A DNA stretch of 64,000 nt from Longimicrobiales bacterium (GTDB lineage: Bacteria; Gemmatimonadota; Gemmatimonadetes; Longimicrobiales; Gaopeijiaceae), in the NCBI GenBank assembly GCA_965238005.1, contig OZ250165.1:2240001-2304000 (forward strand), given 5' to 3'. Position numbers and translations under genes: made by a program. The notes below the pieces were generated by a model. The model saw only the letters and a program-made list of their open reading frames with translations. It did no database searches and was not told the DNA's origin. Shown here piece after piece: positions 31,104-35,965 of this stretch; position 1 is the first letter of the stretch; every line of letters starts with the position of its first letter.

Positions 31104-32704
31104 CGAGCCCTCGTGCCTTGCTGCTGGGCCTCGGCGCCCTGCTGATCGCGTCCGCGCTCTGGAGGCCTGGCGCATCGGTGGGCGCCGACTCCATGACGTC
31201 GTCAGACCAACAGAGCACCCCGGAGGAGAGCACTCCACCCCCACGGCCGCTCGGCCCCGAGGTCGAGGCGCTCCGCCGCGACCTGTCCGGATTCCTGGAC
31301 GGCACGCGGCTACGATCAGCGGAGTGGAGCGTTCTCGTCGTCTCGCTCGATCGGGGCGATACGCTCTTTGCCCGGAACGAGAGCCTCCTCGTCACCCCGG
31401 CTTCCAACATAAAGGTGGTGACGACGGCCGCCGCGCTCCACTTCCTGGGCCCCTCCTTCACGTACCAGACCTTCCTCCTCGGCGACGGCCCCGTGGAAGA
31501 AGGGCACCTCCGGGGTGATCTGATCCTGTATGGAACCGGAGACCCGGGGATCTCGGATCGGTTCTTCCGTACACGCACTCGTGTGTTCGAGAACCTGGCG
31601 GAGCAGCTGGCCGCCGAGGGCATCACCCACATCGACGGAGCCATCGTGGGTGACGCAACATATTTTTCGGGGCCAGACCTTGCGCCCGAGTGGGATCCGA
31701 GGGATCTCAACGAGAGGTTCGCGGCGCCGGCCTCCGCTCTCTCGTTCAACGAGAATATCGTCACGCTGCGGATCACTCCCGCAACCCGCCTGGGAGGCGT
31801 GCCCACAATCGAGACAATCCCGCCCGGATTCCCCCTGGAAATGAACAACACCGCTGAGACGGTCGCGGGGCGACCGCGGCCGAGACTGTGGCTCGATCGG
31901 CCGACGCCGACGTCCCTTATTCGGGTCGACGGCGAGATCACCCAGGGCGGCCCGGACATCTGGCGGCGTCTCACCGTTCCGGATCCCGCCCTGTTCGCTG
32001 CCCGAGCGCTGCGCGAGGTGTTGGAATCCCGGGGCTTCATCGTGGGCGACGGTTCCACAGCCGTTCACCGAGCCGCCCGATCCCGGATCACCGGCCGGGA
32101 GGCTTGGGCCCCGAGGCTCATGGGAGACGCAGAGCCGCGCATTCTGGCCCGCCATTCCTCACCGGAGATGATCGAGTATCTGAACGTGGTCAACCACGAC
32201 AGCCACAACCTCTTCGCCGAGACCATCTTCAAGACCATGGGCAAGGTCGTGATGGGTCAGGGATCCTTCGAGGGAGGCGCACGAGCGGTCCGGGCCTTCA
32301 CGGCTGGTGAAGTCGGGCTGGACGATCGCGACATCGTCGCGGTGGACGGCTCGGGGCTCTCGGACAGCAACCGGGCGACGGCAGGCGGATTGGTAGGGGT
32401 CCTGCGGTACGTAGCCGCGACGCCTCACTGGGATGCGTTCGTTTCCACGCTTCCCGAAGCGGGCCGTTCGCTGCGCCGGATGTACCGGACCCGGGCGGCC
32501 CGAAATCTCCGGGCCAAGACGGGGACGATTGACGGAGTCTCGGCCCTTACGGGAGTAGTCTCGGCACGGAACGGTGAAAGGCTGCTCTTCAGCATCCTCT
32601 CCAACGACGTCCCATCGACGAGCGCCGCCAAACGGGTGGAGGATCGGATCGGGGCCAGGCTCGCCGACTTTCGGAGAGCCGCACCCGACCTGCCAGGCTC
32701 CTAG
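31100..32704 (+). CDS. dacB: D-Ala-D-Ala carboxypeptidase/endopeptidase (PBP4, S13)
   Basis: PASNIK (SxxK), SHN, DGSGLS, AKTGT. Confidence 0.93.
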   Translation: MTSPRALLLGLGALLIASALWRPGASVGADSMTSSDQQSTPEESTPPPRPLGPEVEALRRDLSGFLDGTRLRSAEWSVLVVSLDRGDTLFARNESLLVTPASNIKVVTTAAALHFLGPSFTYQTFLLGDGPVEEGHLRGDLILYGTGDPGISDRFFRTRTRVFENLAEQLAAEGITHIDGAIVGDATYFSGPDLAPEWDPRDLNERFAAPASALSFNENIVTLRITPATRLGGVPTIETIPPGFPLEMNNTAETVAGRPRPRLWLDRPTPTSLIRVDGEITQGGPDIWRRLTVPDPALFAARALREVLESRGFIVGDGSTAVHRAARSRITGREAWAPRLMGDAEPRILARHSSPEMIEYLNVVNHDSHNLFAETIFKTMGKVVMGQGSFEGGARAVRAFTAGEVGLDDRDIVAVDGSGLSDSNRATAGGLVGVLRYVAATPHWDAFVSTLPEAGRSLRRMYRTRAARNLRAKTGTIDGVSALTGVVSARNGERLLFSILSNDVPSTSAAKRVEDRIGARLADFRRAAPDLPGS

Positions 32705-32718
32705 AAGCCTAGCCTAGT

Positions 32719-33053: not shown

Positions 33054-33857
33054 TCAGGCCACTGATGCTCGCGACGCAGCCGAGATCTCAAACCCGCAAT
33101 CGCGGAAAAAGTGCCTGAGCACGAATGACAACCCCCCCCTCGCGGCCACCATCGTGGGCGTGGCGCCGGTATAGCTCTTCAGGGCCCTGCGGAACGCCGC
33201 CCCGGATGAATACTCCAGCTGCCGGCTGACGCTCTGCCCCGTCCGCCCGGGATCCCCCAGCCAGTGACCCGCATGGAGGAGCCGCGACCACACCAGGAGG
33301 CGTCCGATGGCCGGCAAACCGGCCCTCTTCAGGCCTACGCTCAAGAAGGGTCGAGAGAGACCCATGAGGTCGGAGAACTCCTCGGCCGACCAGCACTTGT
33401 GGACTTGGTCCAGTACGAGCCTCAGAGCCTTCGTTTCACGCGGTGGAAGCTCGGGGCTCACCTCACGAAGCACCCGAGACGTCACGCCTCTCTCTCGCGC
33501 CTTGTCGACGCTTCGCAACAATCGCCAGGCCTGATCTTCACTGCCCAGCAGAACCAGGCTCCGGAAACCGAGGCGTCCCACCTCGAAGAGAGTTCGCGGA
33601 TCCTCCTTGGCAGTGGCCAGAAGAACGAATCCCACGCTCGGAAAGTCCCGCCGCAACCTCAAAAGCCGCTCCAGCCCGCCCGGACCCCATCCCATGGACG
33701 TCAGATCGACCAGGCATACGCTCACCGGCCGCTCCCGAAGGGACAGCGCAAGCCAGCCGAGCGTCCTGGACTCAGCGACGTCGTGTACGGCCGAGAGAGC
33801 ATCTCGGAGGCTGGACTGGACCCGTGGATCCCTGGTGAACGTACTTGCGAGCGCCAT
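33054..33857 (-). CDS. AraC-family regulator with receiver-like N-terminal domain
   Basis: N-terminal VCLVDL...LRRDFPSVGFVLL (REC-like); C-terminal double HTH ...VSRQLEYSSGAAFRRALKSYTGATP; start could be 33902. Confidence 0.8.
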   Translation of the reverse strand: MALASTFTRDPRVQSSLRDALSAVHDVAESRTLGWLALSLRERPVSVCLVDLTSMGWGPGGLERLLRLRRDFPSVGFVLLATAKEDPRTLFEVGRLGFRSLVLLGSEDQAWRLLRSVDKARERGVTSRVLREVSPELPPRETKALRLVLDQVHKCWSAEEFSDLMGLSRPFLSVGLKRAGLPAIGRLLVWSRLLHAGHWLGDPGRTGQSVSRQLEYSSGAAFRRALKSYTGATPTMVAARGGLSFVLRHFFRDCGFEISAASRASVA

Positions 33858-33894
33858 GACCTTCGGAAAAGATATACCCGTGGCCGGAAATGAT

Positions 33895-33919
33895 TGCGGC
33901 ATCTAAGGATGCCGCATCC
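33895..33919. promoter_or_regulatory. Inverted repeat in divergent promoter (candidate operator)
   Basis: TGCGGCATC-TAAG-GATGCCGCA, overlapping GGATGC-C-GCATCC, next to an AT-rich stretch. Confidence 0.45.
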
Positions 33920-33984
33920 ACCTTTATCAAGTTATATGGTGCAGTCGCGCCTCACCAGCCCCACTTTCGGAGGACATCGGTCTC

Positions 33985-34154
33985 ATGAGGAAGCGCTTCG
34001 CATCTTATTCGCCGTCGCCACCTTCTCGTTCGCATTGGGTGCCTGCTCGTCCCCCGCCGGCCTGGACTGCACCACCGGAGATAGCTTCTGCCAGTCGGGC
34101 AGCAATGGTCACAATCCGGGCAGCAACGGTCACAACCCGGGCAGCGGCGGCTAA
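33985..34154 (+). CDS. Small lipoprotein-signal peptide with GSNGHNP repeats (apparent 1-nt frameshift after start)
   Basis: GGAGG at 33969 and ATG 33985. Adding one base after ATGAGGAA gives MRKALRILFAVATFSFALGA-CSSPAGLDCTTGDSFCQSGSNGHNPGSNGHNPGSGG. In-frame upstream ATGs exist at 33909 and 33936. Confidence 0.7.
34098..34145 (+). repeat. 21-bp coding tandem repeat (about 2.3 copies)
   Basis: GGCAGCAAYGGTCACAAYCCG x2 plus GGCAGC; copies differ only at synonymous positions. Confidence 0.9.
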
Positions 34155-35965
34155 GTAACCAGCTCGCCCTCCGTCGACAACTGGCCCCGCATAGCGTTCA
34201 GCTCGCTGCGGACTCCGTCGATGCCCTCGAGGGTCGCGGGTTCGGTGGGTGCACTCGCACCCTCTGCTGCGAATTCTCCGGCGCTTAGGGCTTCGAGGGC
34301 AGCCTCCGCCTGGAAGGAGATCTGGTTGTTGCCGTGCTCCTCGGAGTACGTCTTCGCTTCCGTGAGTCAGCGTTCAGCCAACTCCATGTCCCCCAGGAGG
34401 CCATAGGCCTTACCGCGATAGAGAAGTAGCTCGGAGACCATGAAGGGCGACCCGCTTCGCCAGGCCGTCTCGTCGACGGCCTCGAGTCGAGCCTCGAACT
34501 GTTTTCGACGGCCCAGAAGAGCCTCGATGTAGGCCAGGGCGTCCAGCGCGTAGACCCGATAACGGAAGTCCTGCGTACAGTGTGCCACTACCGTGTAGGC
34601 GTCTTCCGCAGCCGCGAGCTCACCCACCTCGACAAAGGCCCAGGCCAGGTCAGAGAGGGCCTGCAGCTGGTCCCGCTCCGAAGGATAAAGGCGAACCGCC
34701 TCCCAACCGTGCCGGATCGCCTTCCCGGGGCGACCGGACAGCTTCTCGTCGGTCATGAGGTCGTGGTGACTCAATCCCTGCACGTAGCGGTCGCCATCCG
34801 CCTCTCCCCACTCCAGGGTCTGTCGATGCAGCTCGAGGGCTCGCGGCAGGTTCCCCTTCTCCCGGAGGGCGTTCCCCAGCCCCAGAGTCGCCATAGCCGA
34901 CAGCCGGCCGTCGTCGAGCGCCCCACCCAGGTCCTGGGCCACCCCGTACCACTGCTCGCTCTCGTCCCATGCGCCGAGCCGGCGATGGGCTCTGCCGAGG
35001 AAGCGGGCGGCGGATCCGGCGATGGCTCCCGATCCACAGGTCACCGCTACCAGGTAGGCCAGGTTGAAGACCTCCCGAGCCCCGTGCAGGTGCCCGAGCA
35101 TGTCCACGCGGTCCGTCAGCTCCAGGAGAGAGCGTCCCAGCTCTACCCCGTCGCCGGAGCCGAGGGCTTCCAAGACCGCGCTCCAGCTCGCTCGCTCGGG
35201 ATCGCCCCGGTCCACCGCGTCGAGCTCGCGCCCAACTCCCTCGACCTGCTGACACAGGGCCTCGGGATCCAAGATGAGCTCCTCGTCCAGTGCGGACCGT
35301 ACCGCACGGGCAACGAGGAAGCGCGCGGCGATCCGGCGATTCGTCTCGGCGTCGGCCTCTCGCCCCTCCAGGTCCTTGAGGATCGCCCATCCGGAAAAGG
35401 TCTCCCCCGCCTCGGGACCGGCGCCCTTCCGCGGGCGCCTCGAACCGGCCGCTTTGCGGTCCAGATCCTGATGAAGAACCACGGCCGCCGCCTCACCAGC
35501 GAGGAACATGAGCTCGTCCGTGACCTCCACCGCGAGCCGCGCTCGGGGCGTCAGAGAGTCGACTATGAGGAACCAAGCCCTGGTTCCGTCGCTGCCCATG
35601 GCGACGCAGCAGGAGCTGCGGACGCCCGAGATCGGGATCTCACCGGAGCGCTCGGTGTCCGGCAGGTCGAGGAGGCCTGGCACACCCTTGCCCCACACGA
35701 CGCGACACGCCTGCATCGCGAAGTCTCGCCGGGGGGGATTCCCCACGAGGTCCAGCAGGCAGTGAACGTGAACCAAGCCGGGCCCGTATTCATCGACCCA
35801 AACGACGGCGGCCCGATCGGCCCCGACCAGCTCCTGCGCCGAGGTGAGATACCCCAGGAGGCATGAGCGCGCCGGGTCCCCCCGGTAGAGCGCGGCGGTC
35901 TGCTCGGACCGTTTCGCCCGCCCGCTCCGGTAATCTGCGAGGCGTGGAACGTTCGAAGTAGACAT
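34151..35965 (-). CDS. GAF-like + TPR-repeat protein with in-frame TGA at 34367-34369 (possible pseudogene)
   Basis: N-terminal AQELVGADRAAVVW...VRSSCCVAM...AWFLIVDS...ELMFLAGEAAAVV (GAF-like); TPR helices (LGRAHRRLGAWDESEQWY, LGNALREKGNLPRALELH); frame stays open 71 codons past the TGA to TAG at 34151. Confidence 0.75.

Follow-up and report, generated by a model that had tools for sequence, protein, structure and literature searches.

The window analysed here, i.e., the whole stretch of 64,000 nucleotides, contains a locus in which the best start signal and a lipoprotein-type reading frame do not match. On the plus strand, a Shine-Dalgarno-like GGAGG (33969-33973) precedes an ATG at 33985, from which a frame of 57 aa (MRKRF...) remains open to 34158. 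One frame over, the ORF at 33894..34154 (plus strand) reads ...ALRILFAVATFSFALGA before and CSSPAGLDCTTGDSFCQSGSNGHNPGSNGHNPGSGG after the putative cleavage site, up to its stop codon; its signal part is ...HEEALRILFAVATFSFALGA, and its Cys codons lie at 34044, 34068 and 34089. The ORF carries a repeat with a 21-nt period (2.4 copies with 93% matches at 34096-34145, Tandem Repeats Finder), the two full copies of which, in the register of the preliminary description of this locus, differ only in AAT/AAC at two Asn codons. That description had pointed out the mismatch between start and frame, and the sequence is indeed as it stated. The questions that arise are which frame constitutes the gene, whether the gene is intact in this organism, and what role a small lipoprotein that ends in heptapeptide repeats might play.

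Reading frame and state of the window copy

The features of the locus and of its two neighbouring genes are as follows (window coordinates):

33054..33857, minus strand: gene for a predicted regulator with receiver-like domain and AraC-type HTH (Pfam HTH_18), divergent from the lipoprotein gene
33861..33916, no strand assigned: conserved motif CTTCGGAAAAGATATACCC (33861-33879), GGAAATGAT (33886-33894) and a GC-rich stem-loop (33895-33916), from cross-genus comparison
33936..33938, plus strand: lineage-specific ATG (GTG in relatives), the only plausible in-frame substitute start; no Shine-Dalgarno sequence, 36-aa signal
33969..33973, plus strand: Shine-Dalgarno-like GGAGG of the ancestral start; GGAGG or GAGGA lies 8-11 nt 5' of the ATG in most orthologous loci
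33985..33987, plus strand: ancestral ATG start, out of frame here, in frame in the same-genus genomes G001 and G002
33993..33996, plus strand: GCGC versus GC in both same-genus genomes, a duplication of 2 bp after codon 3 and the cause of the frameshift (alignments)
33996..34043, plus strand: predicted hydrophobic core and lipobox (..FALGA), read in the same frame as ORF 33894..34154 (alignment with relatives)
34044..34046, plus strand: predicted lipobox Cys, +1 of the mature protein (column C20, invariant in 31 of 31)
34044..34109, plus strand: spacer CSSPAGLDCTTGDSFCQS and truncated first unit (GSNG), with the Cys pair at 34068 and 34089
34110..34151, plus strand: two heptapeptide units, HNPGSNG and HNPGSGG, up to the stop codon (repeat analysis)
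34152..34154, plus strand: TAA stop, which shares bases with that of the convergent TPR gene (34151-34153, minus strand)
34151..35965, minus strand: gene for a GAF-like plus TPR protein of 605 aa in G002; here a TGA at 34367-34369 leaves 532 aa and a tail of 71 aa

Related genomes decide between the two frames. A DNA search of 41 genomes (40 related ones and G000, the genome of the window) detected the locus at 92% identity in G002 and at 88% in G001. Both read ATGAGGAAGCTTCGC, which places the ATG in the reading frame of the lipoprotein, and M-[KRT]-[KRT]... is the N-terminus of all 31 aligned family members. Since it is in frame in G001, G002 and all relatives found, the ATG at 33985 represents the ancestral start. 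That the real gene is instead the 57-aa frame (MRKRFASY...AAAAK) has a negligible probability: this frame has the best start signal and stays open to 34158, but in G002 and G001 it is interrupted by stops and has no connection to the ATG, and the differences between the repeats are synonymous in the lipoprotein frame. Conservation of the alternative frame had been named beforehand as a point that could overturn the lipoprotein reading; the stops in both same-genus relatives favour the lipoprotein frame and refute the 57-aa frame as a gene. Nor is the lipoprotein ORF a product of chance, since all 30 related loci fetched have this ORF, with the same architecture, in the corresponding position. 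In its own genome, a paralogue search returned a single match, the peptide itself. Sequence comparison thus supports a real, selected lipoprotein-type gene, which is hidden behind an out-of-frame Shine-Dalgarno/ATG pair.

The 3' part of the locus differs from the same-genus genomes in two further respects. The stops of the convergent lipoprotein and TPR genes overlap at 34151-34154, with six extra bases between them in G001 and G002, and an in-frame deletion of 9 nt relative to both genomes at about 34097 has removed the HNP of the first unit.

The preliminary description had proposed to restore one missing base. However, relative to G001 and G002 the window has two bases too many (GCGC versus GC). 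The lesion was checked in Logan contigs of sequencing runs, the run type of X1 and X2 being absent from the record. In X1 (study P1, depth about 14), record 6 spans 33949-34063 with 0 differences and has the +2 form; in X2 (study P2, depth 2.2), record 18 covers 33854-34397 (544 nt) with 0 differences, which links the +2 form to the TGA at 34367. In X4 (study P3), a form without the two bases accounts for 8.63 of a depth of 25.1 and carries G002-like substitutions. It is very improbable that the frameshift arose as an error of sequencing or assembly while the organism has an intact gene. The genome is a single 4.84-Mb contig, which suggests long reads, and indels are also present in the sister assemblies; however, the exact +2 form occurs without differences in independent contig sets from two studies (one of which may be the source of the assembly), one 544-nt contig ties it to the TGA of the TPR gene, the duplication site is not a homopolymer, and the other differences linked to the in-frame allele of X4 assign that allele to another strain. 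The GC insertion is real with high confidence, and its presence in contigs of two studies makes it probably an inactivating mutation rather than a base to restore.

In this genus, the other genes of the cassette are damaged as well. In G000, the TGA of the TPR gene (34367-34369, minus strand) replaces Trp533, which is invariant in 42 of 42 homologues, and the frame is then open for 71 codons to 34151. The TGA is found on record 18 of X2, and X4 and X17 have the Trp codon (34367 T>C). The TPR gene of G001 carries a +1 and a 50-bp deletion, and the regulator gene of G002 has gained one base and lost another at a distance of 438 nt; two of these indels, the insertions of T at 33832 and at 34593, are also seen in X4 contigs. 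Because sister genomes carry other lesions in the cassette, it is decaying in this genus, and the occurrence of different lesions in different cassette genes of three genomes suggests relaxed selection on the cassette as a whole.

The window copy might nevertheless be functional if translation began at the ATG at 33936, which the +2 brings into frame and which would provide a long signal of 36 aa. The frame is open from 33894 to 34154, base 33936 is A in this lineage only and G in relatives, and from this start the lipobox pattern is still found, with an Arg within the first seven residues. At this position, A>G is a minor variant in X1 (4.5 of 18.1) and makes up 14.1 of 17.1 in X4. Such a rescue is nonetheless improbable: 33936 is not preceded by a Shine-Dalgarno sequence, and the strong Shine-Dalgarno/ATG pair at 33985 would load ribosomes into the wrong frame. 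The Cys would be at position 37, outside the range of 15-35 in the lipoprotein rule used below, and two Glu stand directly before the hydrophobic core. Moreover, a stop in place of an invariant Trp shortens the partner TPR gene, and lesions also affect the cassette of G001 and G002. The best explanation, to which a probability of about 0.75 is assigned as a whole, has as one of its parts that the window at 33985-34154 contains a disabled local copy of a very small lipoprotein gene; given the lesions across the cassette in three genomes, this copy is most likely a young pseudogene.

Small lipoproteins with heptapeptide arrays

With the intact G002 protein (58 aa) as query, six of six matches were small proteins of the same build with 2-6 units, which read HNPGSNG, HNPGGNG, HNPGSGG, HNPGPNG or LAPGGNG. 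A profile of these matches recovered the protein in 50 of the 201 genomes searched from the window's taxonomic family and in 29 of 81 genera, and a small ORF with a lipoprotein-type signal is in place in all 30 loci fetched (29 in a first scan, L036 by another script). A second profile comprised 31 members and left out the frameshifted window copy, L033 (with two repeat-less paralogues) and L036. Among 1.84 billion representative clusters, it matched 125 at E<=0.001, including 36 at <=1e-10. Seven of these 125 proteins are longer than 130 aa and were set aside as probably spurious; of the 118 representatives of up to 130 aa that were kept, 114 have a lipobox. Two to seven tandem units form the end of the protein in 58 clusters (20, 11, 13, 9, 3 and 2 clusters with 2, 3, 4, 5, 6 and 7 copies, respectively), which is an undercount because arrays followed by a few trailing residues were scored as one copy. 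These 58 repeat-bearing clusters contain 56 different unit sequences. The family is characterized by a short positively charged N-terminus, a hydrophobic core, a lipobox Cys, a short spacer and a single heptapeptide repeated head to tail in one to seven copies, the last of which ends at the stop codon. The spacer often holds a Cys pair, which is missing from part of the family.

Two loci deviate from this build. In L033 (G056), the position of the gene in the cassette is occupied by two tandem paralogous lipoprotein ORFs without repeats, which end in ...IIPGPNT and ...PNTYTCE. In L064 (G042), a stop codon ends the lipoprotein ORF ten residues into the mature part, and the units follow in a different frame; one of the representative proteins, P0287, is an intact look-alike.

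No Pfam or NCBIfam family was found for the lipoprotein, and a search of the ESM Atlas with the G002 protein returned unnamed clusters only (best score 0.86). Several named families are alike in size and in a signal peptide with lipobox, namely LptM (13.6 versus a cut-off of 27.7 bits), YgdI/YgdR (12.8 versus 42 bits), PG1828 (13.5 versus 50 bits) and DUF4223 (score 0.78 in the ESM Atlas). However, the three NCBIfam scores fall short of the cut-offs and derive from the signal peptide alone, and none of these families has C-terminal heptapeptide arrays. Judged by these comparisons, the predicted lipoprotein is outside every named small-lipoprotein family. It probably belongs to Gemmatimonadota, a phylum assignment that was derived from source labels (Gemmatimonadota/Longimicrobiales) on homologues of neighbour genes. 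For genome annotation, this means that genes of 40-100 codons with no family-model match are easily missed or mis-started, and the window copy is disrupted in addition.

The assignment as a lipoprotein relies on an invariant residue and on a rule. All 31 aligned members have the Cys, Ala at -1 and Ser at mature +3 (two residues after the Cys) are each present in at least 90%, and all 31 members pass a lipoprotein rule that combines n-region charge, hydrophobic core and a lipobox Cys at about position 15-35, similar to the PROSITE pattern. For the window copy, the rule is passed only if the protein is read from the ancestral start, an ATG that is out of frame here. The genome itself encodes one Lgt (PF01790, 166.7 bits) and one LspA (PF01252, 120.8 bits). 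From the invariant Cys and this rule, the protein is predicted to be a lipidated lipoprotein, and as far as tested it works like one; the A-x-A-like residues that precede the Cys would be compatible with signal peptidase I too.

The repeats bear a strong mark of selection at the peptide level. In 89 units from 29 loci, codon columns contain 110 synonymous versus 6 non-synonymous extra codon types, counts that do not represent independent events since the differences are partly shared by descent among related genomes. For pooled pairs of units within the same gene (Nei-Gojobori), pS is 0.563 and pN 0.0176, a ratio of 0.03, which bears out the earlier claim that the frame of the repeats is the selected one. 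With synonymous sites nearly saturated and pN low, the copies must be old, yet they are identical as peptides. Between lineages, the unit sequence varies, while the units of one protein are identical. When units are read in the register that starts with His or Tyr, every protein ends exactly at a unit end; among the 25 loci of family f1 with at least two units, 21 have units that begin with His and 4 have units that begin with Tyr, and in the wider representative set the first residue can also be I, G, V, F or L.

A change within the genus illustrates how the units evolve. Both units of G001 read HNPGSIG, as opposed to HNPGSNG in G002 (loci L009 and L012), and each has retained its own synonymous marker (AAT/AAC became ATT/ATC). 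The same replacement of N by I therefore happened twice and does not reflect conversion. In addition, a 10-bp insertion in G001 (L012/L003) brings a stop after unit 2 and thereby cuts off a third unit, which is unchanged.

The three-gene cassette

The lipoprotein gene lies antisense between the genes for the GAF-TPR protein and the receiver-AraC protein, both on the minus strand. A homologue of the TPR gene adjoins the peptide gene in convergent orientation in 30 of 30 loci, and an AraC-like gene adjoins in 28 of 30, the exceptions being a contig that is too short and a larger gap (tblastn in both cases). Conversely, 15 nearly complete genomes of the family gave no match to the peptide; 12 of them have neither the TPR nor the AraC-like orthologue, and the same three have both. 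These three do carry the small ORF, which has a GTG start in one of them, is interrupted in another and has only one unit in the third. Such counts do not come from independent samples, as the genomes are related, and the synteny could partly be inertia, as PBP4 and EamA are also conserved neighbours. However, in G011 and G005, PBP4-orf94 and the EamA gene abut with nothing between them, so that the three genes form the indel unit and orf94 is outside it. The comparison of gene order shows that genomes have the cassette of three genes between orf94 and the EamA gene either as a whole or not at all. That lesions are spread over the genes of the cassette likewise suggests that the three genes work together.

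The neighbourhood comprises Peptidase_S13, orf94, EamA, an FAD oxidase and a TIG-domain protein (Pfam/NCBIfam scan). In the ESM Atlas, orf94 matches unnamed clusters, the commonest phylum of which is Gemmatimonadota. At 32698-32718, a CTAG-rich palindromic stretch lies between the convergent PBP4 and orf94 genes, with differences of 16-21 nt among the three same-genus genomes.

In the model of the GAF-TPR protein (605 aa, pLDDT 87), residues 9-165 form a GAF-like alpha/beta domain and residues 194-561 a TPR superhelix, and the C-terminus is a helix. Foldseek ranks peptide-binding TPR domains of LGN/Pins first (E 1.6e-8), and the Bacillota receptors RapI (2.5e-5) and NprR (1e-4) follow at ranks 33-42; a PDB sequence search gave generic TPR matches only. 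An HTH was found neither by the Pfam scan nor in the structure model. In the regulator model (pLDDT 91), a receiver-like domain is combined with an AraC HTH, and its best Foldseek matches are the response regulators StyR, FixJ, RcsB and NarL. Homologues of the regulator mostly have 266-268 aa, and the window gene encodes 267 or 282 aa depending on the start. The regulator probably starts at the ATG at 33857 and not at 33902, the 45 nt 5' of 33857 being conserved non-coding motif.

This intergenic motif and GGAAATGAT are kept across genera. The stem-loop, which has 9 bp and a TAAG loop in the window, changes in sequence between genera while its pairing is kept, as judged by eye and by an exact inverted-repeat scan. 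RNAalifold found no consensus in a MAFFT alignment of 29 upstream regions, because the stem-loop shifts its register between genera. A scan of 33600-34400 gave no match to Rfam, and no sigma-70 promoter or terminator was found at 33700-34400. A contig of X17, a metatranscriptome library, covers 33995-34192 of a relative's copy with 21 differences and has an in-frame ATG in its 5' loose end, which is a hint of transcription only, as the library may hold DNA.

Similar gene pairs occur beyond the family. Two other families of the order have TPR/AraC pairs, with a small lipoprotein ORF at 7 of 24 loci, and these small ORFs end in a single C-terminal motif (...[YH]xGSGG, ...YAGSGC or ...G[YF]xNNN). 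Tandem amplification of the unit is therefore typical of the window's family. Genomes of family f2 contain up to four TPR-profile matches each, and an AraC-like gene adjoins at all 12 loci fetched, so they seem to possess multiple paralogous sensor/regulator pairs. As orthologues of the window's TPR gene, the family f2 matches were rejected, being multiple paralogues in which only the TPR part is covered.

Possible roles of the repeated units

On these comparative grounds, the cassette may be a peptide-signalling cassette. In intact copies, the precursor would be exported, lipidated by Lgt and cleaved by LspA, and its C-terminal units would constitute the specific ligand of the cassette. Released as heptapeptides, the units would be sensed by the cytoplasmic TPR protein, which would act on the receiver-AraC regulator and, through it, on the shared promoter region. 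A role as signal is favoured by the identity of the units within a protein, their diversity between lineages, their C-terminal position, the presence of a TPR protein and a regulator that travel with the lipoprotein gene, and the precedent of tandemly duplicated pheromones in Rap-Phr propeptides (PMC11343458). A released heptapeptide ligand that is sensed by the TPR protein is the leading guess, albeit a tentative one. The putative multi-copy pheromone of the preliminary description has thereby gained circumstantial support, from the cassette with TPR protein and regulator, the pattern of the units and the protein end at a unit end. When a complex between the TPR protein and the mature lipoprotein of G002 was predicted, the scores were 0.02 and 0.01 (mark, 0.32), values that speak neither for nor against an interaction.

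About equally likely is a regulated envelope lipoprotein that stays anchored. In this case, the lipoprotein would be the output of the TPR/receiver-AraC pair, and its tail, rich in Gly, Pro, Asn and Ser, would serve as a flexible spacer, a metal-binding string of His/Tyr or a coat of the cell surface. The regulator and lipoprotein genes are transcribed away from each other across a common intergenic region in which a motif is conserved (a classic regulator-target layout), the lipobox implies membrane anchoring, and the first unit residue is always His or Tyr in the 25 loci mentioned above. However, the 56 units of the 58 clusters, with I, G, V, F or L also found as first residue, have no common chemistry, the units are kept identical within each protein despite near-saturation at synonymous sites, and the parallel replacement in both units of G001 is hard to explain for a mere spacer.

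By comparison, it would be very surprising if the repeats were RiPP precursor cores modified by dedicated enzymes. Identical repeated units do resemble multi-core precursors, and the TPR protein has a weak NCBIfam match to a RiPP-associated TPR protein (HaaT model). However, the match scores 28.6 bits versus a cut-off of 1125, the cassette is a three-gene indel unit with no modifying enzyme in it or adjoining it, and a Sec/lipoprotein signal would carry the peptide away from cytoplasmic enzymes. The preliminary description had itself remarked that modifying enzymes are not visible nearby, which agrees with the Pfam/NCBIfam scans of the neighbours; its suggestion of a RiPP-like precursor finds no support in these data.

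Among known systems, the candidate signalling cassette most readily invites comparison with the RRNPP(A) peptide signalling of Bacillota, for which Rap-Phr propeptides with tandemly duplicated pheromones are described (PMC11343458; see also PMC10075063). In both, the gene for a cytoplasmic TPR protein has beside it one for a small precursor of about 40-100 aa that is exported, or here predicted to be, the candidate active part is C-terminal, 6-7 residues long and present in several copies per precursor, the peptide differs between close lineages, and some genomes, here those of a sister family, have several pairs, in this case of TPR and AraC type. As regards the defining features of RRNPP systems, a small gene for a candidate propeptide adjoins a TPR gene in all 30 loci, but a receptor of the Rap, NprR, PlcR, PrgX, Rgg or AimR type, with an N-terminal HTH or Rap-type helical domain, was not found. 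The cassette of the window is in another phylum, which we take to be diderm. Moreover, the precursor has a lipoprotein (SPII) signal, unlike known propeptides, the candidate receptor has a GAF-like N-domain and no HTH, with DNA binding residing in a separate receiver-AraC protein, and the two systems share no detectable sequence homology and a fold similarity at the generic TPR level only. The cassette is thus not a member of RRNPP, and the putative circuit would be analogous and not homologous. The most far-reaching version, a pheromone circuit of a diderm phylum with an origin independent of RRNPP, a lipid-anchored precursor with up to seven copies of a lineage-specific heptapeptide, uptake of the released peptides by cells in which the GAF-TPR sensor reads them and controls the regulator, and unit types that act as pherotypes, must be regarded as rather unlikely.

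Other precursors offer partial parallels. Enterococcal sex pheromones are signals of 7-8 residues that are cut from the hydrophobic signal peptide of lipoprotein precursors. The candidate system shares with them a lipoprotein precursor as the source of a short signal peptide, whereas its repeated units are hydrophilic and located at the C-terminus of the mature part. The alpha-factor of yeast is made from a multi-copy precursor with spacers and processing sites between the units. Here, too, several identical units per precursor are kept identical by selection and vary in copy number; in contrast, the units abut, and a common cleavage residue is not evident, as they end in N, G or S.

A literature search retrieved no work that links Gemmatimonadota to peptide signalling of this kind, and no description of a small lipoprotein with heptapeptide repeats. 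Gemmatimonadota are common in soil and water, with few cultured members. If the units are signals, they would represent peptide-based cell-cell communication in this phylum, and the many lineage-specific units would provide ready ligand/receptor pairs for testing. Even if the protein is only a regulated envelope lipoprotein, the family is a remarkably clear example of selection that keeps repeats identical as peptides.
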